From NCBI RefSeq assembly GCF_055900595.2, contig NZ_CM148325.1: 64,000 nt of DNA; one strand, written 5' to 3'. The notes below the pieces were generated by a model. The model was given only the letters and a program-made list of their open reading frames with translations, ran no database searches and was not told the origin of the DNA. This document shows, one piece after another, positions 5,091-56,429 of this stretch. The stretch's first letter is position 1; the number at the start of each line of letters is the position of its first letter. The position numbers and the translations under genes were made by a program.

Positions 5091-6353
5091 TTACTCCGCC
5101 ACACTCTCACGCAGCGGTTTCACAGGAAAAACTTTTACCTGCTTAATCATATTGTCCTGTACATCGAGAATATCGATATCGTACTCGCCAATACGCACGC
5201 GAGTTCCTGCGACAGGAATTTCTTCCAGTACTTCAAGAATGACGCCATTAACCGTGCGGGCATCATCTTCCGGTAGATGCCAGTTAAAGGCTTTGTTGAT
5301 TTCCCGCACGTTGGCAGTGCCATCGATAATCACCGAACCGTCGTTTTGCGGCGTGACCTCTTCGGCGAGCGTTGGCGACATCGACGTGGTGAAATCACCA
5401 ACAATCTCTTCGAGAATATCTTCGACCGTCACCAGCCCCTGAATGTCTCCATACTCGTTGACGACCAGGCCGACTTTCTTTTTGTTACGCTGAAACTTCA
5501 CCAACTGTGTGCTGAGCGGCGTACCCTCCGGGACAAAATAGATCTCGTCCGCGGCGCGTAGCATGGTTTCTTTGGTGAACTCTTTTTTCTCCGACATGAG
5601 TCGCCAGGCTTCACGCACACGCAGCATACTGATGGCGTCGTCCAGCGAGTCACGGTAGAGCACGATGCGTCCGTGAGGTGAGTGGGAGAGTTGGCGGAGA
5701 ATCGATTTCCAGTCATCGTTGATATCAATACCGATAATTTCACTACGTGGCACCATGATGTCATCGACGGTCATTTTTTCCAGATCGAGTACCGACAACA
5801 GCATATCCTGATTGCGACGGGAAATTTGTGACCGCGATTCGTGCACAATGGTGCGTAATTCTTCTTTGCTTAAAGAGCCACTGACCACGATATCGGTTTT
5901 GATGCCCATCATGCGCATTAACATGCGGGTAATAGCGTTTAGCAACCAGACCAGCGGCATCATCAAAATTTGCAGCGGTGCCAGCAGAAAACTACTTGGA
6001 TAGGCGACTTTTTCCGGGTACAGCGCGGCAATGGTTTTCGGCAATACTTCAGCAAAAACCAGTACGACAAAAGTAAGCACACCAGTCGCAATTGCCACGC
6101 CCGCATCCCCGTACAAACGCATCCCCACAATAGTGCCGAGCGCGGAGGCAAGAATATTGACCAGGTTATTGCCGATTAACACCAGGCTTATCAGGCGGTC
6201 TGGCTTACGCAGCAATTTTTCGACACGTTTGGCCGAGCGATTACCCTGTTTCGCCATATGCCGCAGACGATAGCGGTTGAGGGTCATCATTCCGGTTTCG
6301 GACCCGGAAAAATAGGCTGAAATGACCACCATGATGATCAGAATAATGATCAA
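5091..6353 (-). CDS. yfjD: Inner membrane protein YfjD (DUF21 transmembrane + CBS pair + CorC/HlyC transporter-associated domain)
   Basis: 420-aa ORF, hydrophobic N-terminus, recognised YfjD/CorB-like sequence. Confidence 0.88.
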   Translation of the reverse strand: MIIILIIMVVISAYFSGSETGMMTLNRYRLRHMAKQGNRSAKRVEKLLRKPDRLISLVLIGNNLVNILASALGTIVGMRLYGDAGVAIATGVLTFVVLVFAEVLPKTIAALYPEKVAYPSSFLLAPLQILMMPLVWLLNAITRMLMRMMGIKTDIVVSGSLSKEELRTIVHESRSQISRRNQDMLLSVLDLEKMTVDDIMVPRSEIIGIDINDDWKSILRQLSHSPHGRIVLYRDSLDDAISMLRVREAWRLMSEKKEFTKETMLRAADEIYFVPEGTPLSTQLVKFQRNKKKVGLVVNEYGDIQGLVTVEDILEEIVGDFTTSMSPTLAEEVTPQNDGSVIIDGTANVREINKAFNWHLPEDDARTVNGVILEVLEEIPVAGTRVRIGEYDIDILDVQDNMIKQVKVFPVKPLRESVAE

Positions 6354-6397
6354 CGTGGTAGTAGATATGTGTTCCAGGGGAAACTCCTTTTCTGGGG

Positions 6398-7189
6398 TTA
6401 GCTGATTAACTGCTGGACAATTCGGCTACCGAAGTAGGCCAGTGTCAGAATGACCGCTCCCGCAACGTTAAACCAGACGACGCGGCGTCCACGCCATCCT
6501 TCATGATAATGTCCCCACAGCAGCACAATATAGACAAACCACGCCACGATAGAGAGCACGGCCTTGTCGATATTTTCCATGCTAAATAAGTTGTGCATGT
6601 AGAAGAGACCAGTGCAAAGAGTGAGCGTTAACAGCACCACGCCAATCTGCGTGATGTGGAACATTTTACGCTCGATACTCATCAACGGCGGCATTTCTTG
6701 GTTAAACGCCAGCTTCTTGTTCTTCAGTTGGTAATCAATCCACGCCAGTTGTAATGCATACAGAGCGGCGATAATCAGCGTGGCATAGGAAAAGAGCGAT
6801 AAGCCAATGTGAACCAGCATCCCAGGCGTTGCTTCCAGATGGGTGATGTATTCATTGGGCATAAAGGTGGCCAGCGCCAGGTTGATAAGCGCAAAGGCAT
6901 AGACAATGGGTAGCAGTAACCAGCCACGATTGCGGGAAGCCACGATGGTCATTACCGTACAGATCATCAAACTGACCAGCGAACCAACGTTCAGTAAGCT
7001 GAGGTTTTGTCCGCTATCACCGTCGGGCAAGATACGGGCTTCCAGAGCGATTGCGTGGCAGACCAGCGCGATGACCGCAGAAATAATAGCCATGCGCCGC
7101 CAGCCGCCGTTTTTTTGCAGCAGACCGGGAACAATCAGCGCAAGACTGACGGAGTAGGCGACAAGCGCGAGCAGAGCAAAAACGGGCAT
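6398..7189 (-). CDS. ypjD: Inner membrane protein YpjD (cytochrome c assembly protein-like family)
   Basis: Polytopic membrane ORF; start taken at MPVFALLALV (263 aa); ORF track extends to 7264. Confidence 0.8.
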   Translation of the reverse strand: MPVFALLALVAYSVSLALIVPGLLQKNGGWRRMAIISAVIALVCHAIALEARILPDGDSGQNLSLLNVGSLVSLMICTVMTIVASRNRGWLLLPIVYAFALINLALATFMPNEYITHLEATPGMLVHIGLSLFSYATLIIAALYALQLAWIDYQLKNKKLAFNQEMPPLMSIERKMFHITQIGVVLLTLTLCTGLFYMHNLFSMENIDKAVLSIVAWFVYIVLLWGHYHEGWRGRRVVWFNVAGAVILTLAYFGSRIVQQLIS

Positions 7190-7355
7190 AGTAATGTCGA
7201 CAGTTTGAGCAATAAGAAAGAGAAGCAGTATAGCGTCAGGTGAACGCTGCTCCAACCGTTGCATAACAACAAAGACGCCTTCATGTTATACTGCGGCAAA
7301 ATACTGATGATGTGTCGCGATTGCGGCCAACCGTTTCCACCCCAGGCGAGAGACA

Positions 7356-8717
7356 ATGTTTGATAATTTAACCGATCGTTTGTCGCGCACGCTGCGCAAT
7401 ATCAGTGGCCGTGGACGCCTCACTGAAGACAACGTAAAAGATACGCTGCGCGAAGTGCGCATGGCGCTGCTGGAGGCGGACGTCGCCCTGCCGGTAGTGC
7501 GTGAGTTTATCAATCGCGTAAAAGAGAAAGCGGTTGGTCATGAAGTTAATAAGAGCCTGACGCCGGGGCAGGAGTTCGTCAAAATCGTCCGTAACGAACT
7601 GGTTGCGGCGATGGGCGAAGAGAACCAGACCCTGAATCTGGCTGCGCAACCGCCAGCGGTGGTACTGATGGCGGGCCTGCAAGGTGCCGGTAAAACAACC
7701 AGCGTGGGCAAGCTCGGTAAGTTCCTGCGTGAGAAGCACAAGAAAAAAGTGCTGGTGGTTTCTGCCGACGTTTATCGTCCGGCGGCAATCAAACAGCTGG
7801 AGACGCTGGCAGAGCAGGTGGGCGTTGATTTCTTCCCTTCTGATGTTGGTCAGAAGCCGGTTGATATCGTTAACGCGGCGCTGAAAGAAGCCAAACTGAA
7901 ATTCTACGACGTGCTGCTGGTGGATACCGCCGGTCGTCTGCACGTTGACGAAGCGATGATGGACGAGATCAAACAGGTCCATGCATCGATTAATCCGGTT
8001 GAAACCCTGTTTGTGGTTGATGCCATGACTGGTCAGGATGCGGCCAATACGGCAAAAGCATTCAATGAAGCGTTACCGCTGACCGGTGTGGTACTGACTA
8101 AAGTCGACGGCGATGCTCGTGGCGGTGCGGCGCTCTCGATTCGTCACATCACTGGCAAACCGATCAAATTCCTCGGTGTTGGCGAGAAAACCGAGGCGCT
8201 GGAGCCGTTCCATCCGGACCGCATCGCTTCCCGTATTCTCGGCATGGGCGACGTACTGTCGCTGATCGAAGATATCGAAAGCAAAGTTGACCGCGCGCAG
8301 GCAGAGAAATTAGCCAGCAAGCTGAAAAAAGGTGACGGCTTCGATCTCAACGATTTCCTTGAGCAACTGCGCCAGATGAAAAATATGGGCGGCATGGCTA
8401 GCCTGATGGGCAAACTGCCGGGCATGGGGCAGATCCCGGATAACGTCAAGTCGCAGATGGACGATAAAGTGCTGGTGCGTATGGAAGCCATCATCAACTC
8501 GATGACGATGAAAGAGCGCGCTAAGCCAGAAATCATCAAAGGTTCGCGTAAACGCCGTATCGCTGCCGGTTGCGGTATGCAGGTGCAGGACGTTAACCGT
8601 CTTCTGAAACAGTTCGACGACATGCAGCGCATGATGAAGAAAATGAAGAAGGGCGGGATGGCGAAGATGATGAGAAGTATGAAGGGGATGATGCCGCCGG
8701 GATTTCCTGGTCGCTAA
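7356..8717 (+). CDS. ffh: Signal recognition particle protein Ffh
   Basis: 453 aa, GTPase motifs (GLQGAGKTT, DTAGR, TKVDG) and Met-rich C-terminal M domain. Confidence 0.96.
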   Translation: MFDNLTDRLSRTLRNISGRGRLTEDNVKDTLREVRMALLEADVALPVVREFINRVKEKAVGHEVNKSLTPGQEFVKIVRNELVAAMGEENQTLNLAAQPPAVVLMAGLQGAGKTTSVGKLGKFLREKHKKKVLVVSADVYRPAAIKQLETLAEQVGVDFFPSDVGQKPVDIVNAALKEAKLKFYDVLLVDTAGRLHVDEAMMDEIKQVHASINPVETLFVVDAMTGQDAANTAKAFNEALPLTGVVLTKVDGDARGGAALSIRHITGKPIKFLGVGEKTEALEPFHPDRIASRILGMGDVLSLIEDIESKVDRAQAEKLASKLKKGDGFDLNDFLEQLRQMKNMGGMASLMGKLPGMGQIPDNVKSQMDDKVLVRMEAIINSMTMKERAKPEIIKGSRKRRIAAGCGMQVQDVNRLLKQFDDMQRMMKKMKKGGMAKMMRSMKGMMPPGFPGR

Positions 8718-8775
8718 ATGACCTTATGCGACAGAGTTATTAACTGCTGATTGCATTTTCTCCAGAAATCAGTAA

Positions 8776-9102
<327 letters not shown>

Positions 9103-9120
9103 TCTGTCACGGTGGTCATG

Positions 9121-9669
9121 ATGAGCAAACAACTCACCGCGCAAGCACCTGTTGATCCCATCGTTTTGGGAAAAATGGGTTCGTCTTACGGTATTCGTGG
9201 GTGGCTCAGAGTGTTTTCTTCCACCGAAGACGCCGAAAGCATTTTTGACTATCAGCCCTGGTTTATCCAGAAGGCGGGTCAGTGGCAGCAAGTCCAGCTG
9301 GAAAGCTGGAAGCACCACAATCAGGACATGATCATCAAGCTGAAAGGCGTTGACGATCGTGATGCGGCGAACCTGCTGACGAATTGTGAAATTGTCGTGG
9401 ATTCATCGCAGTTGCCTCAGCTTGAAGAGGGTGACTACTACTGGAAAGACCTGATGGGCTGCCAGGTAGTAACCACTGAAGGCTACGATCTCGGTAAAGT
9501 CGTCGATATGATGGAAACCGGATCTAATGACGTTCTCGTCATTAAGGCAAACCTGAAAGATGCGTTTGGTATCAAGGAACGTCTCGTACCGTTCCTCGAT
9601 GGGCAGGTTATCAAGAAAGTCGATCTCACTACTCGTTCAATCGAAGTAGATTGGGATCCTGGTTTTTAA
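9121..9669 (+). CDS. rimM: Ribosome maturation factor RimM
   Basis: [28 protein letters not shown]... 182 aa. Confidence 0.94.
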
Positions 9670-9699
9670 ACCACCGGATAAACGGTAAAAGACGGCGCT

Positions 9700-10467
9700 A
9701 TGTGGATTGGCATAATTAGCCTGTTTCCTGAAATGTTCCGCGCAATTACCGATTACGGGGTAACTGGCCGGGCAGTTAAAAATGGCCTGCTGAGCATCCA
9801 GAGCTGGAGTCCTCGTGACTTCACGCATGACCGGCACCGTACCGTGGACGATCGTCCTTACGGCGGCGGACCGGGGATGTTAATGATGGTGCAACCTTTA
9901 CGGGACGCCATTCATGCAGCAAAAGCCGCGGCGGGTGAAGGCGCAAAGGTGATTTATCTGTCACCGCAGGGGCGCAAGCTTGATCAAGCAGGCGTCAGCG
10001 AACTGGCAACGAATCAAAAATTGATTCTGGTGTGCGGTCGCTACGAAGGTATAGATGAGCGCGTGATCCAAACCGAAATTGACGAAGAATGGTCAATCGG
10101 CGATTACGTTCTCAGTGGTGGTGAGTTACCAGCAATGACGCTGATTGACTCCGTTTCCCGGTTTATTCCGGGAGTACTGGGACATGAAGCCTCGGCAACG
10201 GAAGATTCCTTTGCTGAAGGATTGCTGGATTGCCCGCACTATACGCGGCCTGAGGTGTTAGAAGGGATGGAAGTTCCGCCAGTGTTACTGTCGGGCAACC
10301 ATGCCGAGATACGTCGCTGGCGTTTGAAACAGTCGCTGGGCCGTACCTGGCTTAGAAGACCTGAACTTCTGGAAAACCTGGCTCTGACTGAAGAGCAAGC
10401 AAGGTTGCTGGCGGAGTTCAAAACGGAACACGCACAACAGCAACATAAACATGATGGGATGGCGTAA
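9700..10467 (+). CDS. trmD: tRNA (guanine37-N1)-methyltransferase TrmD
   Basis: [13 protein letters not shown]... 255 aa. Confidence 0.96.
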
Positions 10468-10505
10468 GCCCCCGAGATATCAGTTTACCCAGGATAAGAG
10501 ATTAA

Positions 10506-10856
<351 letters not shown>

Positions 10857-10884
10857 GATTTCGCTTAAGCGACATCCTGTTAAG

Positions 10885-10916
10885 AAGGGCTGGCCAATTG
10901 GCTGGCCCTTTTTTTA
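10885..10916 (+). terminator. Rho-independent terminator of the rpsP-rimM-trmD-rplS operon
   Basis: gggctggccaattggctggccc hairpin followed by ttttttt. Confidence 0.75.
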
Positions 10917-10932
10917 TCTGTTTGCTCGTGTT

Positions 10933-11415
10933 TTAAGGGGTAGTAATCACTACTGCGACGCGGCGGTTCTCGGCGCGGCCCTGGGCGGTCTTGTTACTGG
11001 CTATGGGATATTTTTTTCCTAAACCCTGTGTGGTGAGGTTGCTGCGCGAAATTTGTCCACCTATAGCCCATGCATCGGCCACAACATTCGCCCGTTTCAA
11101 TGATAAGGCTTCGTTGTAACTGTCTTCACCATAGTTGTCGGTGTGTCCATCCATACGGGCATGCGTTAGCCCTGTCGAGGCCAATTTGGCTGCCATGGTT
11201 TGGATCTGTTGCTGGCTTTCCGGGAGCAATTTGTAGTCATTTTTTGCGAACAGAATGGCATCTGATAATCCCAGCGACCAGTCGCCGGCGGATTCAGTAA
11301 ATCCATAAGATTGCATAGCGGCAACTTGCTCAGGAGTAAACTTTCCCTGAGGGGACTGGCAGCCAGTCAGTACTAGCGAGGTGAAAATCAGGGGTGCTAC
11401 CAGGTGCTTTATCAT
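10933..11415 (-). CDS. yfiB: OmpA-family outer membrane lipoprotein YfiB (activator of DgcN)
   Basis: 160 aa, lipobox LTGC, OmpA-like C-terminal domain (NRRVAVVI). Confidence 0.92.
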   Translation of the reverse strand: MIKHLVAPLIFTSLVLTGCQSPQGKFTPEQVAAMQSYGFTESAGDWSLGLSDAILFAKNDYKLLPESQQQIQTMAAKLASTGLTHARMDGHTDNYGEDSYNEALSLKRANVVADAWAIGGQISRSNLTTQGLGKKYPIASNKTAQGRAENRRVAVVITTP

Positions 11416-11430
11416 ATCGATATATCCTTG

Positions 11431-12657
11431 TTATCTCACCAGCTTTTCGGCACGCTGGTGTTTGGCCTGATACATATTGTGATCGGCCAGCTCTTGTAAT
11501 TTTTCCGCAGAGGCATGCTCAATGGTCATCGCGTAACCAATGCTTAATGTCATGGTGGTCTGATGACCATTATGAAGATCAAACGGGCGATTAAAGATTT
11601 GTGTCAGTGCTGAGCATATCCGCTGCACTTCAGATTCCGACTGTACACCATAGAGCACCATCGCGAATTCATCGCCGCCTATGCGGTATGCTTTATGTTG
11701 CAGCCCGCCAAATTCTGCTAACCGTTTTGCTACCTCAATCAAGACCCGATCGCCCGTCGCATGACCCCAGGTATCGTTGATATATTTAAAATTATCGCCA
11801 TCAAGAAACAGTAACGCCGACGTTTTTCTGGCGTCGGAACTGCTCATCAACGTGTTGATGCCGCTACGAAACGCAGCCCGGTTCGCCAGCCCGGTTAATG
11901 GGTCATGTAGCGCGGTACGTAGCAGCTGCGCATTTTTAGCCTGTAAGCGAAGCTGCCACTCTTCCATTTCATCCAGCAGACTGTTGAAGTCGAGAGCGAA
12001 GCGGTGAAACTCAGCGATACGTTCTTCCGAAACTCGTCGGGAAAAATTGCGGTTGGAACGCACATCATGTACGACATCGGTGATATTTTTCAGCGCTTCC
12101 ACCAGGCCATTGTGCAAATGGCGGGTGAGGGTAATTGCGATGCCTGATGCCAGCAGAATACAACCGGTCAGGACAGCGAGCGAAAACCAGATAAAATGGC
12201 TGATTGAACTGTCGCGAGCGGTTAAGCGTACTTCGCCAATGGTTTCACCATTGTGACGAATCGGCTGAGTGATGGGGGCAGGGAAGAGCCAGTGGCTTAT
12301 GAAATTGCTGAAAGTATCGCCTGGATCCTTACGGGTGTAATGCCAGGATGCCAGAATATTTTGCTGCTTATCACGCACTTCTGCAGTTGAAAATTGCCCT
12401 TGCTTCCCCAGCGCTGCCAGTGTTTGAGTTGCTGCAGGGCCATCGGCAAAAACGACCGCTGCTTCCAGACTGTAAGTCATTGTTGCTGCTGTCAGTGCCA
12501 GGTTTTTTTGCGCGTACTGTTTCAGGGTCAGCACCGAGGTCACGGAAAGCAGCAACCAGATCAGCATCATAGTGATAAATATGCTGGTCATACTGATGTT
12601 GCGTAATGCTCTTTTAAACGTGGGGCGCTTATTAAGAGAATTATCGTTATCCATCAT
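11431..12657 (-). CDS. dgcN: Diguanylate cyclase DgcN (YfiN), membrane-bound, HAMP + GGDEF
   Basis: 408 aa with RIGGDEF active-site motif. Confidence 0.93.
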
Positions 12658-13165
12658 TTTTCTTCCGTGCGAGCATTAAGACATCTGGGTTCACCTTTAC
12701 ACCGCTACGCGATAAGGCATCCAGGTTTACGGCAAATCTGACGTCATTATTGTGGATGATCAGACAAAAGGCGCTGCCAATAATGCACTCGGCATTTTGT
12801 TCGGCAATTAATAATAACGCCTTTGACGGATATTGTTCGGTTAATTCCATCTGGAATGTTGGTGACTCGTTGCCAAAATAAAAACCATTGCAGCCTGATA
12901 TCATCGCCTCTTGTTGAGAGTGAATGATGACAGGCAGATAAGGCAAAGATGTCGCGCCATTCTCTTGTAGGGCGGTACTAAAACGTGAAGATGAAAAGAT
13001 ACATAACTTTGGTAGGCCTGATAGCGCAGGCCAGCGAGTGTAACTGACAATACCGGAAACCATCGTACGCACGTTTTTCGCAACGTCTGAAGGTTCCTGA
13101 GCGAGTATTGGTGCTCCCGTCAGGAGGAGAATCAGCAGTAAGAACAGACGATGAGAAAAACGCAT
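12647..13165 (-). CDS. yfiR: Periplasmic repressor of DgcN, YfiR
   Basis: 172 aa with signal peptide; overlaps dgcN start by 11 nt (operon yfiR-dgcN-yfiB). Confidence 0.9.
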
Positions 13166-13315
13166 TCAGGGATCCTCACCATCTTCGCTTGCAATGCATC
13201 GATAATTTTTCAGAATGCTCATTAAAATATCATTTTTTTATGCAGTCGTCATCAGAGTGGGAAATAAAAAATAATAAGTAAAATCTCATGTTTAATTTAT
13301 TGTTGGGGGGGTTAA

Positions 13316-13681
13316 TTAATTTAATCGTATTGTGCTGGCATTCTCATCAGCCCCTTTTTGCCATACTTCATGCAGTTGGCTGGCATTTTCAACATTGTTG
13401 CAGCTGGCAGGAAAGCTTTTACCGGAAAGTCCTCGGGCATAAGTAAAATCGGTCTGGCAAGTTTTCTTTTGTCCTTCGGCATATCCTTTAAGGTATAGAC
13501 CGCGATCCGCCTGTGAATCGCTAAATGCATCGTCATCTTTTATGGCGTTGCCCGATATCGCATCTTCCATACCAACATCATACCAGTCGGTGCTGGTCAA
13601 GGTTGGCGCGTGAGTATAAGGATCAATCTGACATCCGCTAACCAGTAAAGCCAACAAGGGGGCGATAAACTTTTTCATCAT
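13316..13681 (-). CDS. yfiL: Lipoprotein YfiL
   Basis: MMKKFIAPLLALLVSGC lipobox; start taken at the MM pair (121 aa); ORF track extends to 13720. Confidence 0.8.
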   Translation of the reverse strand: MMKKFIAPLLALLVSGCQIDPYTHAPTLTSTDWYDVGMEDAISGNAIKDDDAFSDSQADRGLYLKGYAEGQKKTCQTDFTYARGLSGKSFPASCNNVENASQLHEVWQKGADENASTIRLN

Positions 13682-13726
13682 TTCTTTCTCCTTTTTCAAA
13701 GCATAGCGGATTGTTTTCAAAGGAGG

Positions 13727-13796
13727 TGTAAATTTATTTATACATAAACAAGGGTTAAAAGCGCGAATAAATTGCCTGTGTAAAGAAAAATGTACG
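13727..13796 (+). promoter_or_regulatory. TyrR boxes in the aroF promoter
   Basis: TGTAAATTTATTTATACA (13727-13744) and TGTAAAGAAAAATGTACG (13779-13796) fit TGTAAA-N6-TTTACA. Confidence 0.7.
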
Positions 13797-13890
13797 ATAT
13801 ATGGATTGAAAACTTTACTTTATGTGTTATCGTTACGTCATCCTCGCTGAGGATCAACTATCGCAAACGAGCATAAACAGGATCGCCATC

Positions 13891-14961
13891 ATGCAAAAAG
13901 ACGCGCTGAATAACGTACATATTACCGACGAACAAGTTTTAATGACTCCGGAACAACTGAAGGCCGCTTTTCCATTAAGCCTGCAACAGGAAGCCCAGAT
14001 TGCTGACTCGCGTAAAACCATTTCAGATATTATCGCCGGGCGGGATCCTCGTCTGTTGGTAGTATGTGGTCCTTGTTCCATTCATGATCCGGAAACTGCT
14101 CTGGAATATGCTCGTCGATTTAAAGCCCTTGCCGCAGAGGTCAGCGATAGCCTCTATCTGGTAATGCGCGTCTATTTTGAAAAACCCCGTACCACTGTCG
14201 GCTGGAAAGGGTTAATTAACGATCCCCATATGGATGGCTCTTTTGATGTAGAAGCCGGGCTGCAGATCGCGCGTAAATTGCTGCTTGAGCTGGTGAATAT
14301 GGGACTGCCACTGGCGACGGAAGCGTTAGATCCAAATAGCCCGCAATACCTGGGCGATCTGTTTAGCTGGTCAGCAATTGGTGCTCGTACAACGGAATCG
14401 CAAACACACCGTGAAATGGCCTCCGGGCTTTCCATGCCGGTTGGTTTTAAAAACGGCACCGACGGCAGCCTTGCAACGGCTATTAACGCTATGCGCGCCG
14501 CCGCCCAGCCGCACCGTTTTGTTGGCATTAACCAGGCAGGGCAGGTTGCGTTGCTACAAACTCAGGGGAATCCGGACGGGCATGTGATCCTGCGCGGTGG
14601 TAAAGCGCCAAACTATAGCCCTGCGGATGTTGCGCAATGTGAAAAAGAGATGGAACAGGCGGGACTGCGCCCGTCTCTGATGGTAGATTGCAGCCACGGT
14701 AATTCCAATAAAGATTATCGCCGTCAGCCTGCGGTGGCAGAATCCGTGGTTGCTCAAATCAAAGATGGCAATCGCTCAATTATTGGTCTGATGATCGAAA
14801 GTAATATCCACGAGGGCAATCAGTCTTCCGAGCAACCGCGCAGTGAAATGAAATACGGTGTATCCGTAACCGATGCCTGCATTAGTTGGGAAATGACCGA
14901 TGCCTTGCTGCGTGAAATTCATCAGGATCTGAACGGGCAGCTGACGGCTCGCGTGGCTTAA
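13891..14961 (+). CDS. aroF: DAHP synthase, Tyr-sensitive (AroF)
   Basis: [30 protein letters not shown]... 356 aa. Confidence 0.95.
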
Positions 14962-14971
14962 GAGGTTTATT

Positions 14972-16093
14972 ATGGTTGCTGAATTGACCGCATTACGCGA
15001 TCAAATTGATGAAGTCGATAAAGCGCTACTGAATTTATTAGCGAAGCGTCTGGAACTGGTTGCTGAAGTTGGCGAGGTGAAAAGCCGCTTTGGACTGCCT
15101 ATTTATGTTCCGGAGCGCGAGGCATCTATGCTGGCCTCGCGGCGTGCAGAGGCGGAAGCTCTGGGTGTACCGCCAGATCTGATTGAGGATGTTTTGCGTC
15201 GGGTGATGCGTGAATCTTACTCCAGTGAAAACGACAAAGGATTTAAAACGCTTTGTCCGTCTCTGCGTCCGGTGGTTATCGTCGGTGGTGGCGGTCAGAT
15301 GGGACGTCTGTTCGAGAAGATGCTGACGCTCTCGGGTTATCAGGTGCGGATTCTGGAGCAACATGACTGGGATCGAGCGGCTGATATTGTTGCCGATGCC
15401 GGAATGGTGATTGTTAGTGTGCCCATTCACGTTACTGAACAAGTTATTGGCAAATTACCGCCTTTACCGAAAGATTGTATTCTGGTCGATCTGGCATCGG
15501 TGAAAAATGGACCATTACAGGCCATGCTGGCGGCGCATGATGGTCCGGTGCTGGGGTTACACCCGATGTTCGGCCCGGACAGCGGTAGCCTGGCAAAGCA
15601 AGTTGTGGTCTGGTGTGATGGACGTAAGCCGGAAGCATACCAATGGTTTCTGGAGCAAATTCAGGTCTGGGGCGCTCGGCTGCATCGTATTAGCGCTGTC
15701 GAGCACGATCAGAATATGGCGTTTATTCAGGCACTGCGCCACTTTGCTACTTTTGCTTATGGGCTGCACCTGGCAGAAGAAAATGTTCAGCTTGAGCAAC
15801 TTCTGGCGCTTTCTTCGCCGATTTACCGCCTTGAGCTGGCGATGGTTGGGCGACTGTTTGCCCAGGATCCGCAACTGTATGCCGACATTATTATGTCGTC
15901 AGAGCGTAATCTGGCGTTAATCAAACGTTACTATAAGCGTTTCGGCGAGGCGATTGAGTTGCTGGAGCAGGGCGATAAGCAGGCGTTTATTGACAGTTTC
16001 CGCAAGGTGGAGCACTGGTTCGGCGATTACGCACAGCGTTTTCAGAGTGAAAGCCGCGTGTTATTGCGTCAGGCGAATGACAGTCGCCAGTAA
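14972..16093 (+). CDS. tyrA: Bifunctional chorismate mutase / prephenate dehydrogenase (T-protein)
   Basis: 373 aa TyrA sequence, 10 nt after aroF stop. Confidence 0.95.
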
Positions 16094-16100
16094 TAATCCA

Positions 16101-16133
16101 GTGCCGGGTGGCGTGTTTCACCCGGCACGATTT
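16101..16133. terminator. Bidirectional terminator between convergent tyrA and pheA
   Basis: gtgccgggtg ... cacccggcac hairpin with flanking T-runs. Confidence 0.75.
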
Positions 16134-16135
16134 CA

Positions 16136-17296
16136 TTATGCCGGATCGACTGGTACCACATTCTCGCTTGGGTAACAGCCCAGGACTTTCATCGAGCGAG
16201 TGATTTCACCTAGCTCTTTCAACGCCTGTTGCATTTCCGCTGATTCCAGATTGGCCTGAATATCCAGATAAAACATCTCTTCCCACGGGTTTCCGTGAAT
16301 CGGGCGTGATTCCAGACGGGTCATAATCAGACTGTGATTGCGCAGTACCAGCAACGCTTCAACCAGTGCACCAGCATGTTGTCCGGTCGCCATTAACAAC
16401 GTCGTTTTCGCCGGAACCTGGTCAGAAACGTTAATGGCTTTACGTGCCAACACCACAAATCGGGTGAAGTTTTGTCGCTGATTCGCTTCAATACGCTCCA
16501 GTACCTGCAAACCGTACAAAGTGCCGCCAGCTTCGCTTCCCAACGCAGCAACATGCGGTGATTTTGCCTGTGCAACCTTTTCCATTGCCGCAGACGTACT
16601 TTCGGTATATTCAATCTTCCAGTGCGGATAACGATTAAGGAATTTGCTGCATTGCTGGAATGGCTGCGGATGGCTGTAGACCGTATTGATGGCGGATAAA
16701 TCAGTAGTGCCGGAGACCAACAAACAATGATCGATAGTTAACGTCATCTCGCCAACAATCGACAAACTGGTATGTTGCAGCAGATCGTAAACGTCGTTTA
16801 TGGCACCGGAGCTGGTATTTTCAATCGGTACGACGGCATAGTCGGCCTGGCCGGTTTCCACCTGATTAAAAATATCGGCAAATTTGGCGCAGCCACTTTC
16901 AATGAATTGCTCAAAGTGACGCGCAGCGTACTGACGAGCGGCAAGATGTGAATAGGAGCCTTTGGGGCCGAGAAAAGCGATGCGTGCTGAGTGCGGATTA
17001 ATTTGATTGAGATGTTGCTGGAGCAGTGCCTGCTGAGTTAATACGGAATCTTCAATGATGAGCTGGAACAGGCGAGTAATGTAATGGGCGTCCAGATGGT
17101 GCGCTTTACCGAGCGTAATTAATCTTTCCAGCAAATCGCGTTCGCGATCAATATCACGTACCGGGCGATGAGAGAGCAGTTTGGCTTTTCCCACCTCGAC
17201 GGCCAGTTCGCGCCGCTCTGCCAGTAATGCTAATAATTTTTCATCCAGCGCGCTGATTTTCTCTCGCAGCGCCAGTAACGGGTTTTCCGATGTCAT
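16136..17296 (-). CDS. pheA: Bifunctional chorismate mutase / prephenate dehydratase (P-protein)
   Basis: [22 protein letters not shown]... 386 aa. Confidence 0.95.
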
Positions 17297-17318
17297 AGTG
17301 TTGCCTTTTTGTTATCAA

Positions 17319-17349
17319 TAAAAAAGGCCCCCCGGTTTGGGAGGCCTTA
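17319..17349 (-). terminator. pheA attenuator terminator
   Basis: Minus-strand RNA AAGGCCTCCCAAACCGGGGGGCCTTTTTT between pheL and pheA. Confidence 0.8.
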
Positions 17350-17394
17350 TTGTTCGTCTTCGCATTCTGTTTCACACGACGAAACGCCTCCCAT

Positions 17395-17442
17395 TCAGGG
17401 GAAGGTAAAAAAGAATGCGAAGAAAAACGGTGTGTGTTTCAT
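17395..17442 (-). CDS. pheL: pheA leader peptide PheL (15 aa, Phe-rich)
   Basis: Minus-strand ATG at 17442 encodes [15 protein letters not shown]; not in ORF track because it is under 60 aa. Confidence 0.85.
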   Translation of the reverse strand: [15 protein letters not shown]

Positions 17443-17497
17443 GTTTGTTTCCTTAAGTGACTTCAGTACAGTACCCGTACTGTTTTCACGCTGTCAA

Positions 17498-17941: not shown

Positions 17942-18120
17942 TCAAAATGTGTGATGGAAATCTCATAATTTTGTCACTTTTTGTCAACGAATCTTTTTTG
18001 TGAGAAATCGCAGGAAGAGGTGTTTTTTTACTTGAGGAATATCTCAAAGCGAGCCATATTTGATGAGATCGATAGTGACTAAATCGCTTCAGTTTCACAA
18101 CTAACAGAATAAAAAAACGG

Positions 18121-18133
18121 CAGCTCAAGGCTG
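18121..18133. repeat. Left copy of the direct repeat flanking the IS4 element (putative target-site duplication)
   Basis: cagctcaaggctg here versus cagctcaagggctg at 19655-19668 (one G difference). Confidence 0.6.
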
Positions 18134-18146
18134 TAATGCCAGTCAG

Positions 18147-18858
18147 TTAAGCAACTGACTGGCTCTTTTTCGGGGCTGTGGGGTATTTCCAGGGCCTCTC
18201 CTTTACCACTCTCGGGAAGGCCCTTTCCCTTCTTGTCGGTAATTTCACTGGTTGTCCCATACTTGCAAGATCGCGCATCAGCTCCGGTATACGTCCCGGT
18301 GAAGCGCATGGCGTCCGTCATCGACGTCAGCAGATGGCTGGTCAGTTCCATCTGGCAGACCATTTTGACCTGCGGGTAGAGCGCCGGGTTCTCGGCATGT
18401 GTCTGGCGGGGGAAGGCTGCATCGTTCTCTGGTGTATCCGGTGTGCGCCAGAACACACCATCGATGGCCAGCAGGGTCAGGCCGCACCAGTGCGGATGCA
18501 GCGTGGCGTTATGCCAGAGCTGCGCTGTTTTCGTGAACACGCGTCGGACAGCCTCACTTCCCAGGCGCTGGCGGGCCTGAATAACGGCACTGGGGGCAAC
18601 GAAGGGGCGATTGCCTGGCAGCATGATGTCCAGGCGATTCACAATCTGGTGAAGAGGTTCTTTACGCTCAAGCGCCATGCCAACAATACACCAGACCATC
18701 ATTTCGAGGGGAAGACGGCGCTTGCGTAGCGTTACAGTACCTGATTCGGCAAGGCAACGAGAGATGAGTTCGGGGTCGAGGTAATCCCCCAGAAAAGTCA
18801 GTGGGTTACGCAGAGAATCGTAACGGGATACCAAATCAAGGGCCTGTCCAATGAGCAT
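18147..18858 (-). pseudogene. IS4 transposase (InsG-like) pseudogene: N-terminal ~175 aa intact, then internal deletions and frameshift
   Basis: MLIGQALDLVSRYDSLRNPL...HLLT then jumps to SMTDAMRF and loses frame; 259-aa ORF versus 442 aa for intact IS4 transposase (length recalled from memory). Confidence 0.75.
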
Positions 18859-18894
18859 AAATAAATATCCTCCGGCATAGCCGGAGGTTTTTCA

Positions 18895-19607
18895 AATGCG
18901 CCTGTAAGGCTCTGTTACCAGCCGCGCCCTAACAGGCGCATACGATCTGACATTTGCATTCAACTTCGTTACTTACGGCCCGTAAACGGGCTGCCCGGAT
19001 ATGGAATCGATAACTGCTCCCCCATTTTATCCTCTTCAAGCTGGTGCTTTATGTAGTCCTGTATCTTCGCCGTGTTCTTACCCACCGTATCGACATAGTA
19101 CCCTCGGCACCAGAACTCCCTGTTTCTGTATTTGAATTTCAAATCCCCAAACTGCTCGTAAAGCATCAGACTGCTTTTCCCTTTCAGATATCCCATAAAG
19201 CCGGATACGCTCATTTTGGGTGGGATTTCCACAAGCATATGGATATGATCTGCGCAGCACTCTGCTTCCAGAATCCGTACGCTTTTCCACTCACACAGCT
19301 TTCTCAAAATACTGCCTATCGCCCTACGCTTCTCTCCGTAAAACGCCAGTCTTCGGTATTTCGGCGCAAAAACTATGTGATATTTACAGTTCCAGCGGGT
19401 GTGCGCTAAGCTCTTTTCGTCCCCCATTGGGACCCCCTTTTGATTTCTTGTTTGACACTTGCAGTTGCCAGACCGCAAGGTGTTTTAACAAATCAAAAGG
19501 GGTTTTAATAACTGGCTCAAAGCTGAAAGCTTTCCGGAACCCCCAGCCTAGCTGGGGGTTTTCTGTGCACAAAAAAATCCGGAAACGAGTGAGCGTTTCC
19601 GGATTCT
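18895..19607 (-). mobile_element. IS200-like element (IS200/IS605 family), approx. 0.71 kb, boundaries +/- ~20 bp
   Basis: Contains Y1/HUH transposase tnpA, a terminator-like perfect palindrome near the left end (19577-19603), a 5'-UTR palindrome (19540-19558) and a 10-bp inverted repeat after the stop (18896-18905 / 18932-18941); extent inferred from expected IS4 leader length. Confidence 0.7.
18969..19427 (-). CDS. tnpA: IS200 transposase TnpA (Y1 HUH single-strand transposase)
   Basis: MGDEKSLAHTRWNCKYHIVFAPKYRR...HIHMLVEIPPK... 152 aa; the HxH (HIHML) motif is directly visible; ORF-track start at 19478 is an upstream extension. Confidence 0.9.
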   Translation of the reverse strand: MGDEKSLAHTRWNCKYHIVFAPKYRRLAFYGEKRRAIGSILRKLCEWKSVRILEAECCADHIHMLVEIPPKMSVSGFMGYLKGKSSLMLYEQFGDLKFKYRNREFWCRGYYVDTVGKNTAKIQDYIKHQLEEDKMGEQLSIPYPGSPFTGRK

Positions 19608-22273: not shown

Positions 22274-22334
22274 CCTAAAGAATCAAGACGATCCGGTACG
22301 CGTGATTTTCTTTTCACATTAATCTGGTCAATAA

Positions 22335-22364
22335 CCTTGAATAATTGAGGGATGACCTCATTTA
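22335..22364 (+). promoter_or_regulatory. Sigma-32 promoter of clpB
   Basis: ccttgaa (-35, 22335-22341) and cctcattta (-10, 22356-22364). Confidence 0.75.
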
Positions 22365-22402
22365 ATCTCCAGTAGCAACTTTGATCCGTTATGGGAGGAG
22401 TT

Positions 22403-24976
22403 ATGCGTCTGGATCGTCTTACTAATAAATTCCAGCTTGCTCTTGCCGATGCCCAATCACTTGCACTCGGGCACGACAACCAATTCATCGAACCACTTCA
22501 TTTAATGAGCGCCCTGCTGAATCAGGAAGGGGGTTCGGTTAGTCCTTTATTAACATCCGCCGGCATCAATGCTGGTCAGTTGCGCACAGATATCAATCAG
22601 GCATTAAATCGTTTACCGCAGGTTGAAGGCACTGGCGGCGATGTCCAGCCCTCACAGGATCTGGTGCGCGTTCTTAATCTTTGCGACAAGCTGGCGCAAA
22701 AACGTGGTGATAACTTTATCTCGTCAGAACTGTTCGTTCTGGCGGCACTTGAGTCTCGCGGCACGCTGGCCGACATCCTGAAAGCAGCAGGGGCGACCAC
22801 CGCCAACATTACTCAAGCGATTGAACAAATGCGTGGAGGTGAAAGCGTGAACGATCAAGGAGCTGAAGACCAACGTCAGGCTTTGAAAAAATACACTATC
22901 GACCTCACCGAACGAGCCGAACAAGGCAAACTCGATCCGGTGATTGGCCGTGATGAAGAAATTCGCCGTACCATTCAGGTACTGCAACGTCGTACTAAAA
23001 ATAACCCGGTGCTGATTGGTGAACCAGGCGTTGGTAAAACAGCCATCGTTGAAGGTCTGGCTCAGCGTATTATCAATGGCGAAGTGCCGGAAGGGTTGAA
23101 AGGCCGCCGCGTACTGGCGCTGGATATGGGCGCGCTGGTGGCTGGGGCGAAATATCGCGGTGAGTTTGAAGAGCGTTTAAAAGGCGTGCTTAACGATCTT
23201 GCCAAACAGGAAGGCAACGTCATCCTGTTTATCGACGAATTACATACCATGGTCGGCGCGGGTAAAGCCGATGGCGCAATGGATGCCGGCAACATGCTGA
23301 AACCGGCGCTGGCGCGTGGTGAATTGCACTGCGTAGGTGCCACGACACTGGACGAATATCGCCAGTACATCGAAAAAGATGCTGCGCTGGAACGTCGTTT
23401 CCAGAAAGTGTTTGTTGCCGAGCCAACCGTGGAAGACACCATTGCTATTCTGCGTGGCCTGAAAGAACGTTACGAACTGCACCACCATGTGCAAATTACT
23501 GACCCGGCAATTGTTGCAGCTGCGACATTATCTCATCGCTACATTGCTGACCGTCAGCTGCCGGATAAAGCCATCGACCTGATCGATGAAGCAGCATCCA
23601 GCATTCGTATGCAGATTGACTCAAAACCAGAAGAACTCGACCGACTCGATCGTCGTATCATCCAGCTCAAACTGGAACAACAGGCGTTAATGAAAGAGTC
23701 TGATGAAGCCAGTAAAAAACGCCTGGATATGCTCAACGAAGAACTGAGCGACAAAGAACGTCAGTATTCCGAGTTAGAAGAAGAGTGGAAAGCTGAGAAA
23801 GCGTCGCTTTCTGGTACGCAGACCATTAAAGCGGAACTGGAACAGGCGAAAATCGCCATTGAACAGGCTCGCCGTGTGGGTGATCTGGCGCGGATGTCTG
23901 AACTGCAATATGGCAAAATTCCAGAACTGGAAAAGCAACTGGAAGCCGCAACGCAGCTCGAAGGCAAAACTATGCGTCTCTTGCGTAATAAAGTGACCGA
24001 CGCCGAAATTGCTGAAGTGCTGGCGCGTTGGACGGGGATTCCGGTTTCTCGCATGATGGAAAGCGAGCGCGAAAAACTGCTGCGTATGGAGCAAGAGCTG
24101 CACCATCGCGTTATTGGTCAGAACGAAGCGGTTGATGCGGTATCTAACGCTATTCGTCGTAGCCGTGCGGGGCTTGCTGACCCGAATCGCCCGATTGGTT
24201 CATTCCTGTTCCTCGGCCCAACGGGTGTGGGGAAAACTGAGCTTTGTAAGGCGCTGGCGAACTTTATGTTTGATAGCGACGAGGCGATGGTCCGTATCGA
24301 TATGTCCGAGTTTATGGAGAAACACTCGGTGTCTCGTCTGGTTGGTGCGCCTCCGGGATATGTCGGTTATGAAGAAGGTGGCTACCTGACCGAAGCGGTG
24401 CGTCGTCGTCCGTATTCCGTCATCCTGCTGGATGAAGTGGAAAAAGCGCATCCGGATGTCTTCAACATTCTGTTGCAGGTACTGGATGATGGGCGTCTGA
24501 CTGACGGGCAGGGGAGAACGGTCGACTTCCGTAATACGGTTGTCATTATGACCTCTAACCTCGGTTCCGATTTGATTCAGGAACGCTTCGGTGAACTGGA
24601 TTATGCGCACATGAAAGAGCTGGTACTCGGTGTGGTAAGCCATAACTTCCGTCCGGAATTCATTAACCGTATCGATGAAGTGGTGGTCTTCCATCCGCTG
24701 GGTGAACAGCACATTGCGTCGATTGCGCAGATTCAGTTGAAACGTCTGTACAAACGTCTGGAAGAACGTGGTTATGAAATCCACATTTCTGACGAGGCGC
24801 TGAAACTGCTGAGCGAGAACGGTTACGATCCGGTCTATGGTGCACGTCCTCTGAAACGTGCTATCCAGCAGCAGATCGAAAACCCGCTGGCACAGCAAAT
24901 ACTGTCTGGTGAATTGGTTCCGGGTAAAGTTATTCGCCTGGAAGTTAATGAAGACAGGATTGTCGCCGTCCAGTAA
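22403..24976 (+). CDS. clpB: Chaperone ClpB (Hsp100 disaggregase)
   Basis: [27 protein letters not shown]... 857 aa, two AAA+ modules; ORF-track 22391 start is 4 codons upstream. Confidence 0.96.
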
Positions 24977-25417: not shown

Positions 25418-26959
<1,542 letters not shown>

Positions 26960-27044
26960 CCTTAAAGAACTGTTCTTTGCAGTGCTCACACAGATTGTCT
27001 GATAGAAAGTGAAAAGCAAGGCGTCTTGCGAAGCAGACTGATAC

Positions 27045-27120
27045 GTCCCCTTCGTCTAGAGGCCCAGGACACCGCCCTTTCACGGCGGTAACAGGGGTTC
27101 GAATCCCCTAGGGGACGCCA
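27045..27120 (+). tRNA. gltW: tRNA-Glu (UUC) in the 16S-23S spacer
   Basis: GTCCCCTTCGTCTAGAGGCCCAGGACACCGCCCTTTCACGGCGGTAACAGGGGTTCGAATCCCCTAGGGGACGCCA. Confidence 0.97.
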
Positions 27121-27314
27121 CTTGCTGGTTTGTGAGTGAAAGTCGCCGACCTTAATATCGTTAAAGATGACTTACGAGTCATGTTTAAGATATTTGCTCT
27201 TTAAAAATCTGGATCAAGCTGAAAATTGAAACACTGAACAATGAAAGTTGTTCGTGAGTCTCTCAAATTTTCGCAACACGATGATGAATCGAAAGAAACA
27301 TCTTCGGGTTGTGA

Positions 27315-30219
<2,905 letters not shown>

Positions 30220-30312
30220 ACAACGCCGAAGATGTTTTGGCGGATTGAGAGAAGATTTTCAGCCTGATACAGATTAAATCAGAACGCAGAAGCGGTCTGA
30301 TGAAACAGAATT

Positions 30313-30432
30313 TGCCTGGCGGCCTTAGCGCGGTGGTCCCACCTGACCCCATGCCGAACTCAGAAGTGAAACGCCGTAGCGCCGATGGTAGTGTGGGGTC
30401 TCCCCATGCGAGAGTAGGGAACTGCCAGGCAT
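30313..30432 (+). rRNA. rrfG: 5S ribosomal RNA
   Basis: TGCCTGGCGGC...GGAACTGCCAGGCAT, 120 nt. Confidence 0.97.
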
Positions 30433-47753: not shown

Positions 47754-48709
47754 TGAAGCAACTTTGGTTTGCCATGTCATTAGTGACAGGTAGCCTGTTA
47801 TTCTCTGCTAACGCCTCGGCCACTCCCGCGTCCGGGGCGTTATTACAGCAGATGAACCTGGCCAGTCAGTCACTGAATTACGAGCTGTCATTCATCAGCA
47901 TCAATAAACAGGGTGTTGAGTCTCTGCGTTATCGACATGCACGCCTCGATAACCGTCCTCTTGCACAATTGTTGCAAATGGATGGCCCGCGCCGGGAAGT
48001 GGTACAGCGCGGCAATGAAATCAGCTACTTTGAACCGGGCCTTGAACCGTTCACGCTTAATGGCGATTACATTGTTGATTCTCTGCCATCGCTCATCTAT
48101 ACCGATTTCAAACGCCTTTCTCCTTACTACGACTTTATCTCCGTGGGACGCACGCGTATTGCTGATCGTCTTTGCGAAGTCATTCGCGTGGTGGCCCGTG
48201 ATGGCACACGCTACAGCTACATCGTGTGGATGGACACCGAATCGAAATTACCGATGCGGGTTGATCTCCTTGATCGCGATGGTGAAACGCTGGAACAATT
48301 TCGCGTGATTGCTTTTAACGTTAATCAGGATATCAGCAGCAGTATGCAGACGCTGGCGAAAGCAAATCTGCCGCCGCTGCTTTCTGTTCCTGTAGGTGAA
48401 AAAGCTAAATTCAGCTGGACGCCAACCTGGTTGCCACAGGGGTTTAGTGAAGTTTCCAGCAGCCGACGTCCGTTACCGACGATGGACAACATGCCTATCG
48501 AATCACGTCTCTATTCCGACGGATTATTCAGCTTCTCGGTAAACGTTAACCGCGCTACGCCATCGAGCACCGATCAGATGTTGCGCACCGGACGCAGAAC
48601 CGTCAGTACAAGCGTACGTGATAACGCCGAAATCACCATTGTCGGCGAACTGCCGCCGCAAACGGCGAAACGCATTGCCGAGAATATTAAGTTCGGGGCA
48701 GCGCAATGA
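47753..48709 (+). CDS. rseB: Sigma-E regulatory protein RseB
   Basis: 318 aa with signal peptide. Confidence 0.95.
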   Translation: MKQLWFAMSLVTGSLLFSANASATPASGALLQQMNLASQSLNYELSFISINKQGVESLRYRHARLDNRPLAQLLQMDGPRREVVQRGNEISYFEPGLEPFTLNGDYIVDSLPSLIYTDFKRLSPYYDFISVGRTRIADRLCEVIRVVARDGTRYSYIVWMDTESKLPMRVDLLDRDGETLEQFRVIAFNVNQDISSSMQTLAKANLPPLLSVPVGEKAKFSWTPTWLPQGFSEVSSSRRPLPTMDNMPIESRLYSDGLFSFSVNVNRATPSSTDQMLRTGRRTVSTSVRDNAEITIVGELPPQTAKRIAENIKFGAAQ

Positions 48710-49185
48710 TCAAAGAGTGGGCTACGGTCGTCTCCTGGCAAAACGGGCAGGCGCTGGTCAGTTGTGATGTTAAAGCCTCATGCAGCAGCTGTGCTTCCCG
48801 TGTCGGTTGCGGTAGCCGCGTGCTGAATAAACTTGGCCCACAAACCACGCATACCATTGTCGTACCCTGTGATGAACCGTTAGTACCGGGGCAAAAAGTG
48901 GAATTAGGAATCACCGAAGGCAGCCTGCTTAGCTCCGCATTACTGGTTTATATGTCGCCGTTGGTGGGATTATTCCTCATCGCTTCGTTATTTCAGCTAC
49001 TCTTTGCTTCAGATCTTGCAGCATTATGCGGTGCGATTCTCGGCGGCGTTGGTGGATTCCTGATTGCACGCAGCTACTCGCGAAAGTTTGCTGCCCGGGC
49101 AGAATGGCAACCGATCATCTTAAGCGTGGCATTGCCGCCAGGCCTTGTGCGATTTGAAACATCTTCGGAAGACGCGAGCCAGTGA
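48706..49185 (+). CDS. rseC: Sigma-E regulatory protein RseC
   Basis: 159 aa membrane protein; overlaps rseB stop by 4 nt. Confidence 0.93.
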   Translation: MIKEWATVVSWQNGQALVSCDVKASCSSCASRVGCGSRVLNKLGPQTTHTIVVPCDEPLVPGQKVELGITEGSLLSSALLVYMSPLVGLFLIASLFQLLFASDLAALCGAILGGVGGFLIARSYSRKFAARAEWQPIILSVALPPGLVRFETSSEDASQ

Positions 49186-49382
49186 TTTCACTGGCTTTGT
49201 TGCATTTTGCATAACAAATGCGAGGACGTTTCCAGATACCACAATCCATACCGTATGAACATTTCCTCGCCTCAATGTTGTAGTGTAGAATGCGGCGTTT
49301 CTATTAATACAGACGTTAAGCTCAGAACAGCGACTTCTAAAAGCCTGGTTAACCGGGCATTAAGGCACAATAATCATACTTT

Positions 49383-51182
<1,800 letters not shown>

Positions 51183-52172: not shown

Positions 52173-52318
52173 TAGCTTATCTTCGTTCACGTTGTCGCCG
52201 TTATGGCGACAACGTGAATTATTTATGAGATAAATCCCCCGTGGCTAACGACATCCCCCGTCGTTGTGTATAGAATATTCCCCCGAAGTTTAAGGTTGGC
52301 ACCTCCAGGTTGCCACGG

Positions 52319-52410
52319 CACACGAAACAGCGTTGGTCCCCATATACCGGTAAACTGAAACTGCAGCGAAGCAGTTAGCAGAGCCATGTATATCAGGTCT
52401 GTTTCGTGTG
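52319..52410 (+). promoter_or_regulatory. rnc leader long stem (RNase III autoregulatory processing structure)
   Basis: 12-bp perfect inverted repeat cacacgaaacag (52319-52330) / ctgtttcgtgtg (52399-52410) in the 5' UTR of rnc. Confidence 0.65.
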
Positions 52411-52414
52411 CTGA

Positions 52415-54027
<1,613 letters not shown>

Positions 54028-56029: not shown

Positions 56030-56072
56030 AAAAGTAAAACCCCCGAACTGGTAAGGAACGGGGGTTTTACTT
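56030..56072. terminator. Terminator hairpin downstream of acpS
   Basis: aaaacccccgaactggtaaggaacgggggtttt flanked by A/T runs. Confidence 0.7.
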
Positions 56073-56429
56073 TACAACTTTAATTTTGTGCAGCACACGA
56101 TTCCAACAAAAATGATTATGGATCAATTTAGTTATCCTGTACAAGCAACTTGCAATCTTTAGCATAAAAACTCGAGCCTTTACGAAGAAATCGATATTGA
56201 TGAAAAGATTAACGTGACCGCTTTTTGATAAGTACATTAGAATCGGCGTCGTTATTGGATATTTTGCTGTGTTCTACGCCATGCCACTGAATTCCCCCAT
56301 TGAAACGAGTGGTGTCGTCAAAGCTCTGGTGTGGAGTGCGGCACTCGATTCCAATAACTCGCACGTTCAGTTTTGGGGAGATGTAAGGGCTAATCTGAAC
56401 GGCTGCATTCCTTGTTTAAGGAAAAACGA

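Follow-up and report, generated by a model that had tools for sequence, protein, structure and literature searches.

The native yfiR-dgcN-yfiB operon of a rare E. coli lineage is intact and presumably functional

The locus under study comprises three adjacent genes, yfiR, dgcN (also called yfiN) and yfiB, which run from 13165 to 10933 on the minus strand of the window, by which we mean the whole stretch of 64,000 nucleotides that was analysed. Their order, R-N-B, is that of a YfiBNR-type tripartite operon (Table 1). The first-pass annotation, made from the sequence, had placed three complete reading frames between 10933 and 13165 and had yfiR overlapping dgcN by 11 nt. The first statement agrees with the list of open reading frames for positions 9500-14500, in which the yfiR, dgcN and yfiB frames contain no internal stop, and with the gene coordinates of an identical annotated genome described below. 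The overlap is seen at 12647-12657, where the minus strand reads ATGATGGATAA and the ATG of dgcN sits within the final codons of yfiR. Downstream, dgcN and yfiB are separated by a spacer of 15 nt that contains AAGGA, while the ribosome-binding site of yfiR, GAGGA, is located 7 nt 5' of its ATG.

Table 1. Features of the yfi locus, in window coordinates.
Feature	Coordinates	Strand	Description and basis
yfiR	12647..13165	-	ORF, 172 aa; predicted periplasmic repressor of DgcN
dgcN (yfiN)	11431..12657	-	ORF, 408 aa; predicted inner-membrane diguanylate cyclase
yfiB	10933..11415	-	ORF, 160 aa; predicted OmpA-like outer-membrane lipoprotein
G+C-rich hairpin	10882..10913	unassigned (.)	between the convergent genes rplS and yfiB; terminator scan
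yfiL-yfiR intergenic region, AT-rich	13166..13315	-	150 nt; contains the yfiR ribosome-binding site, read directly

The operon promoter presumably lies in the AT-rich intergenic region upstream of yfiR. A sigma-70 scan of the minus strand 5' of yfiR returned no site with at least 9 of 12 matches, and the number of hits in this region equals the expectation from shuffled sequence. By eye, we noted one candidate, an extended -10 element TGATATTTT with ATGACG 17 nt upstream, which reaches just 8 of 12 matches. At the other end of the operon, the terminator scan found a hairpin with a 14-pair stem and a T run on the plus strand only, and this is clearly an intrinsic terminator for rplS. On the minus strand the same hairpin has A7 on its 5' side and CTTAAC, a poor T-tract, on its 3' side; it may plausibly also mark the end of the yfi transcript, although this use is weaker than that for rplS. 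A search of the whole window against Rfam placed no RNA family within 10933-13165.

A megablast search with positions 10800-13300 gave a match in 5425 of the 5426 complete E. coli genomes, every time on the chromosome, and eight of these genomes are 100% identical across all 2,501 bases. In the identical genomes, annotation by the NCBI PGAP pipeline gives these three genes at matching coordinates. For example, window position 10800 lies at locus position 6001 of NZ_CP098223.1, and the PGAP genes yfiB, dgcN and yfiR of that genome convert exactly to 10933-11415, 11431-12657 and 12647-13165. The surrounding genes (ffh, rpsP, rimM, trmD, rplS, yfiB, dgcN, yfiR, yfiL, aroF, tyrA, pheA) are arranged as in E. 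coli K-12 b2593-b2611, and the K-12 operon itself (b2603-b2605) lies at the corresponding place in the chromosome, with yfiL/aroF on one side and rplS on the other. As judged from these matches, the window is E. coli chromosome.

We compared the three genes with their K-12 counterparts codon for codon. Both genomes have the same gene lengths, with yfiR and dgcN overlapping by 11 nt and dgcN and yfiB set 15 nt apart, and all three alignments are gapless. Nucleotide identity is 96.53% for yfiR, 96.74% for dgcN and 96.89% for yfiB, with 5, 11 and 5 amino acid differences, respectively; the proteins are approximately 97% identical and differ by 21 amino acid changes in total. The genes are collinear throughout, with no frameshift relative to K-12. 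The earlier claim that all three reading frames are complete therefore stands, each being of full length, gapless against K-12 and free of stops; a frameshift or a loss of the GGDEF motif, the two flaws that the first-pass annotation had considered, were both absent from the K-12 alignment.

Disrupted copies of this region do occur in the species. In 55 of the 5425 genomes no contiguous match spans 80% or more of the region, and in one of them, NZ_CM129852.1, the yfi region is disrupted by an IS1 insertion with a deletion. In principle, the locus in the window could likewise be a decayed copy, a pseudogene or an operon interrupted by an insertion sequence. We give this reading virtually no credence, since no insertion interrupts the frames, which have their full length and are collinear with those of K-12; the list of open reading frames and the K-12 alignment together refute it.

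The product of yfiR was assigned to the YfiR family by NCBIfam model NF053586 (sequest_YfiR; 165.1 bits against a cut-off of 85, E = 9.6e-49) and by Pfam PF13689 (DUF4154; 5.2e-30, 104.9 bits against 24.9). The latter family carries the name 'YfiR/HmsC-like' in Pfam. Among solved structures, the best match was P. aeruginosa YfiR (2e-16). The four cysteines of the window protein (Cys55, 92, 127 and 134) share alignment columns with Cys71, 110, 145 and 152 of the P. aeruginosa protein, where Cys71-Cys110 and Cys145-Cys152 form disulfide bonds, the latter being essential for folding (PMC4887326). A check of the conserved cysteines, proposed along with the original annotation, thus found all four of them present and aligned. 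Arg44 matches P. aeruginosa Arg60, whereas Lys157 and Asn159 stand in place of Arg175 and His177. According to a Kyte-Doolittle hydropathy rule, an N-terminal hydrophobic segment covers residues 3-25 and ends in ILA|QEP, and this signal-like segment suggests that YfiR is periplasmic. The family assignment, the signal segment and the four aligned cysteines fit the annotated identity of a periplasmic repressor, and the K-12 protein, 97% identical to that of the window, has been shown to bind and repress its cyclase (PMC4992967). One of the differences from K-12, P51L, lies four residues before Cys55.

For DgcN, the NCBIfam model NF007423 (DgcN/YfiN) matched residues 11-399 of 408 with 504.4 bits against a cut-off of 325 (E = 1.9e-151), and Pfam identified a CHASE8 domain at residues 45-146 (3.3e-33) and a GGDEF domain at residues 249-403 (8.2e-43). 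Two hydrophobic segments, at about 20-46 and 150-179 by Kyte-Doolittle analysis, bracket CHASE8, so that the domain order is hydrophobic segment 1, CHASE8, hydrophobic segment 2, linker and GGDEF domain. This arrangement points to a bitopic-loop sensor cyclase of the inner membrane. No HAMP domain was matched in the linker (approximately 180-245) by Pfam at E<=0.001; residues 169-243 gave weak NCBIfam matches to histidine-kinase models. The best match among solved structures was P. aeruginosa TpbB (YfiN) 7a7e (7.3e-29), with the catalytic region aligned throughout. The equivalog model, the position of CHASE8 between hydrophobic segments and the intact GGDEF motif (residues 327-331) agree with the annotated identity of a GGDEF diguanylate cyclase.

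The primary I-site position of DgcN (residues 318-321), five residues before GGDEF, reads GLQH in the window versus GLRH in K-12 (R320Q), and the segment RLGGDEF of K-12 is RIGGDEF here (L326I). Both proteins share the intact GGDEF motif and the absence of an RxxD I-site; the GLQH of the window agrees with the published observation that E. coli YfiN is devoid of an RxxD I-site (PMC10127611). In contrast, P. aeruginosa YfiN has RESD, an RxxD sequence, at the corresponding position. The sole RxxD string in the window protein is RPFD at residue 357, which arises from the substitution L357R. We considered it as a hidden I-site and rejected it, since it is located 26 residues downstream of GGDEF, in the wrong position. 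Residue 280 is Ser in the 408-aa DgcN of both K-12 and the window, and the numbering of the published secondary I-site 'N280' (PMC10127611) is not reconciled with it.

The product of yfiB matched NCBIfam models NF007424 (PRK09967; 343.9 bits, cut-off 155, E = 1.3e-103) and NF053585 (OMP_LP_YfiB; 230.4 bits, cut-off 128), and contains a Pfam OmpA domain at residues 55-151 (9.4e-18). All three yfi products score above the curated NCBIfam equivalog cut-offs, at E-values well outside chance. The YfiB lipobox, LTGC at residues 16-19, pairs with LAGC in P. aeruginosa YfiB, so that Cys19 corresponds to Cys26 of the latter. Position +2 is Gln rather than Asp, and the +2 rule would predict sorting to the outer membrane; beyond the lipoprotein signal, Kyte-Doolittle analysis found no hydrophobic segments in YfiB. 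With P. aeruginosa YfiB 4zhv as the closest solved structure (8e-31), the lipobox and the OmpA domain support its annotation as an OmpA-like outer-membrane lipoprotein. Phe39 and Trp46 align with P. aeruginosa Phe48 and Trp55, which insert into YfiR as hydrophobic anchors (PMC4887326), and Asp93, Gly96 and Arg108 align with Asp102, Gly105 and Arg117, residues of the pocket that binds peptidoglycan. The window protein has Met34 where P. aeruginosa has Leu43.

The P. aeruginosa YfiBNR system (YfiR PA1121, YfiN/TpbB PA1120, YfiB PA1119) has the same three-protein architecture. The first-pass annotation had proposed an alignment to characterised YfiBNR/TpbB systems, and in this comparison P. aeruginosa YfiR, TpbB and YfiB proved to be the best solved-structure matches of the three proteins, with conservation of the key residues, namely the four YfiR cysteines, the lipobox cysteine, the Phe/Trp anchors and the Asp/Gly/Arg pocket of YfiB, and GGDEF. 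The sequences are nevertheless distant, with E-values from 2e-16 to 8e-31, and activation through YfiB has been demonstrated in P. aeruginosa but not clearly in E. coli. Salmonella enterica has the same pair of repressor and cyclase, yfiRN, although yfiB, present in the window, is absent there (PMC4992967). As far as the account in PMC5550408 goes, HmsCDE of Yersinia pestis is a homologous, redox-responsive system with three components, namely a periplasmic repressor resembling YfiR, a cyclase and an OmpA-like lipoprotein; it belongs to another genus, its reported output is the flea-blockage biofilm, and the likeness is one of description.

Taken together, the locus is almost certainly the chromosomal yfiR-dgcN-yfiB operon native to E. 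coli; it is complete and, as far as its sequence can tell, presumably functional. The operon is already known and already annotated in RefSeq; it is an intact and ordinary core locus of E. coli. Its significance here is low, as genetic and structural studies in E. coli and P. aeruginosa have already characterised the operon, and the sole use of the present case is that of a positive control, indicating that gene identities and coordinates were read accurately from raw sequence.

By analogy with the K-12 proteins (97% identical) and the P. aeruginosa homologues, we can outline how the module of the window might work; its binding, catalysis and physiology are transferred from these sources. YfiR would be exported to the periplasm and fold there with two disulfide bonds. 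In its folded, oxidised form it would bind the periplasmic CHASE8 domain of DgcN in the inner membrane and keep the cyclase off. Under reducing conditions, or upon loss of DsbA, YfiR would misfold and become inactive; in the alternative route of P. aeruginosa, activated YfiB would sequester YfiR at the peptidoglycan and the outer membrane. In either case, derepressed DgcN would synthesise c-di-GMP. The sequestration step was established in P. aeruginosa and is assumed here, because a yfiB knockout in E. coli had no effect on the stress-induced relocation of YfiN (PMC4992967).

Lower motility, more cellulose and biofilm, and this relocation are among the outputs reported for E. coli. Upon envelope stress, DgcN moves to the midcell Z ring via FtsZ and ZipA, and division is arrested (PMC4992967); in addition, on gluconeogenic carbon sources E. 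coli YfiN depletes GTP and thereby halts growth, an effect that depends on the absent I-sites (PMC10127611). The E. coli module could therefore be mainly a stress checkpoint, acting through midcell division arrest and GTP drain, rather than a switch between biofilm and motility, with YfiB in a minor role. The insensitivity of the FtsZ/ZipA-dependent relocation to the yfiB knockout speaks for this possibility, as does the window allele, which with its GLQH likewise has no RxxD at the primary I-site. On the other hand, these papers and their references report that E. coli without yfiR makes more cellulose and biofilm and is less motile (PMC4992967). Moreover, yfiB is intact in this lineage, nearly all of the listed E. 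coli genomes carry a yfiB annotation where they match, and its residues for anchoring YfiR and for binding peptidoglycan are conserved; this conservation argues for a role. On balance we consider a predominantly checkpoint function somewhat unlikely. The checkpoint and biofilm/motility readings are outputs of one mechanism and do not exclude each other.

Few E. coli genomes closely match the yfi region of the window: just 11 are at least 99% identical to it, and most are near 96%. We applied the same search to two flanking regions of 2.5 kb each. The aroF-tyrA-pheA flank was at least 99% identical in 15 genomes and the yfjD-ypjD-ffh flank in nine, and the same eight genomes were identical in both. 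A locus-specific import or a recombination hotspot as the source of the ~96% identity was rejected, since the flanking regions show the same distribution. Because both flanks share the pattern, the divergence extends across the lineage, and by these comparisons a rare lineage, and not the yfi locus in particular, accounts for the ~96% identity to most E. coli.

At the protein level, the yfi genes differ more from K-12 than most of their neighbours. Among the 12 flanking genes compared with K-12 over their full length, 10 carry no more than one amino acid change and tyrA carries two, compared with the 21 changes in the yfi proteins. Similarly, the nonsynonymous share of nucleotide differences is ~0.3 in the yfi genes versus 0-0.07 in the conserved flanking genes. 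These contrasts would fit an allele that is functionally altered in the rare lineage despite its intact frames, so that the cyclase or its repression is weakened or deregulated; candidate substitutions are L326I (beside GGDEF), R320Q, N272S/N273S, D337G and L357R in DgcN and P51L in YfiR. A raised nonsynonymous share is nevertheless expected for a dispensable signalling operon beside ribosomal and housekeeping genes. The 21 substitutions all fall outside the residues with assigned roles, leaving GGDEF unchanged along with all four cysteines of YfiR and the lipobox and peptidoglycan-binding residues of YfiB. Furthermore, the changed positions also vary between E. coli and P. aeruginosa, an identical version is kept in eight complete genomes, and there are no stops or frameshifts. 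We therefore regard a functionally altered allele as very improbable and retain the reading of an ordinary native operon.

There is also a small chance that the allele of the rare lineage tunes the switch differently from that of K-12, with respect to basal c-di-GMP, redox sensitivity or the growth arrest caused by GTP drain. If so, it would represent natural allelic variation in a known switch. The substitutions of interest in this respect are R320Q within the vestigial primary I-site, N272S/N273S, L326I adjoining GGDEF, and P51L near Cys55 of YfiR.

The yfiR-dgcN-yfiB operon is subject to occasional natural loss or interruption in E. coli. We compared the region holding it (window 10800-13300) with 5,426 E. 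coli genomes, requiring a contiguous match that covers at least 80% of the region, and no such match was found in 55 of 5,425 genomes. In contrast, only 0-1 genomes lacked a contiguous match at the same coverage for each of the two 2.5-kb flanking regions (aroF-tyrA-pheA and yfjD-ypjD-ffh). Two examples are NZ_CM129852.1, where the yfi region is disrupted by IS1 together with a deletion, and NZ_CP163448.1, where IS200C is inserted in it.

Throughout window 5200-16400, the sequence comes from a lineage with few representatives in the set of complete E. coli genomes. Depending on the 2.5-kb region compared, identity of at least 99% was observed in just 9-15 complete genomes, eight of them identical; most show about 96%. 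The diguanylate cyclase DgcN (window 11431-12657) carries several allele-specific changes close to functional sites, at residues 272, 273, 320, 326 and 357. Relative to K-12, these include N272S/N273S, R320Q within the vestigial I-site (GLRH to GLQH), and L326I, which adjoins the GGDEF motif. The L357R substitution yields an RPFD string that does not lie at the I-site position. A secondary I-site position of YfiN (DgcN) has been named 'N280' (PMC10127611); this numbering does not fit the 408-aa DgcN, in which residue 280 (window about 11818-11820) is a serine in both the K-12 and the window proteins.

Upstream of the operon, mechanical ORF calls at window 13316-13720 and 13822-14961 exceed the annotated yfiL and aroF in length. 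For yfiL, the call gives 134 aa with a TTG start and the annotation 121 aa (13681..13316); for aroF, the respective lengths are 379 aa and 356 aa (annotated start 13891). The longer frames are start-codon artefacts of the ORF lister rather than genuine extensions of the genes.

Comparison with K-12 also revealed two differences between genes. The raiA-bamD interval contains an insertion (window 18079-19560), around which collinearity breaks at window 18133/19655; its IS4-family transposase remnant is frameshifted according to the annotation of NZ_CP098223.1, a genome identical over the yfi region. Between ffh and rpsP, the window is without approximately 126 nt found in K-12 (site at window 8717-8732), a segment that may be a repetitive extragenic element. 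Elsewhere, the window holds a complete rRNA operon (25418-30430) and several known RNAs.

Coordinates of mobile-element, RNA and missing features (window positions unless stated)
Feature	Position	Location or remark
IS4-family transposase remnant (ORF)	18858..18079	raiA-bamD insertion; N-terminal domain only
IS200/IS605 tnpA	19478..18969	raiA-bamD insertion
STnc490 RNA (Rfam)	19437-19560	raiA-bamD insertion, with IS200/IS605 tnpA
Segment missing from window	11308-11435 of K-12 locus L001	between ffh and rpsP
16S	25418-26959	rRNA operon
tRNA	27045-27117	rRNA operon, between 16S and 23S
23S	27315-30219	rRNA operon
5S	30315-30430	rRNA operon
Phe leader	17318-17443	known RNA
RyfD	22284-22422	known RNA
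AsrC	48670-49501	known RNA
rncO	52285-52499	known RNA
ohsC	56031-56107	known RNA
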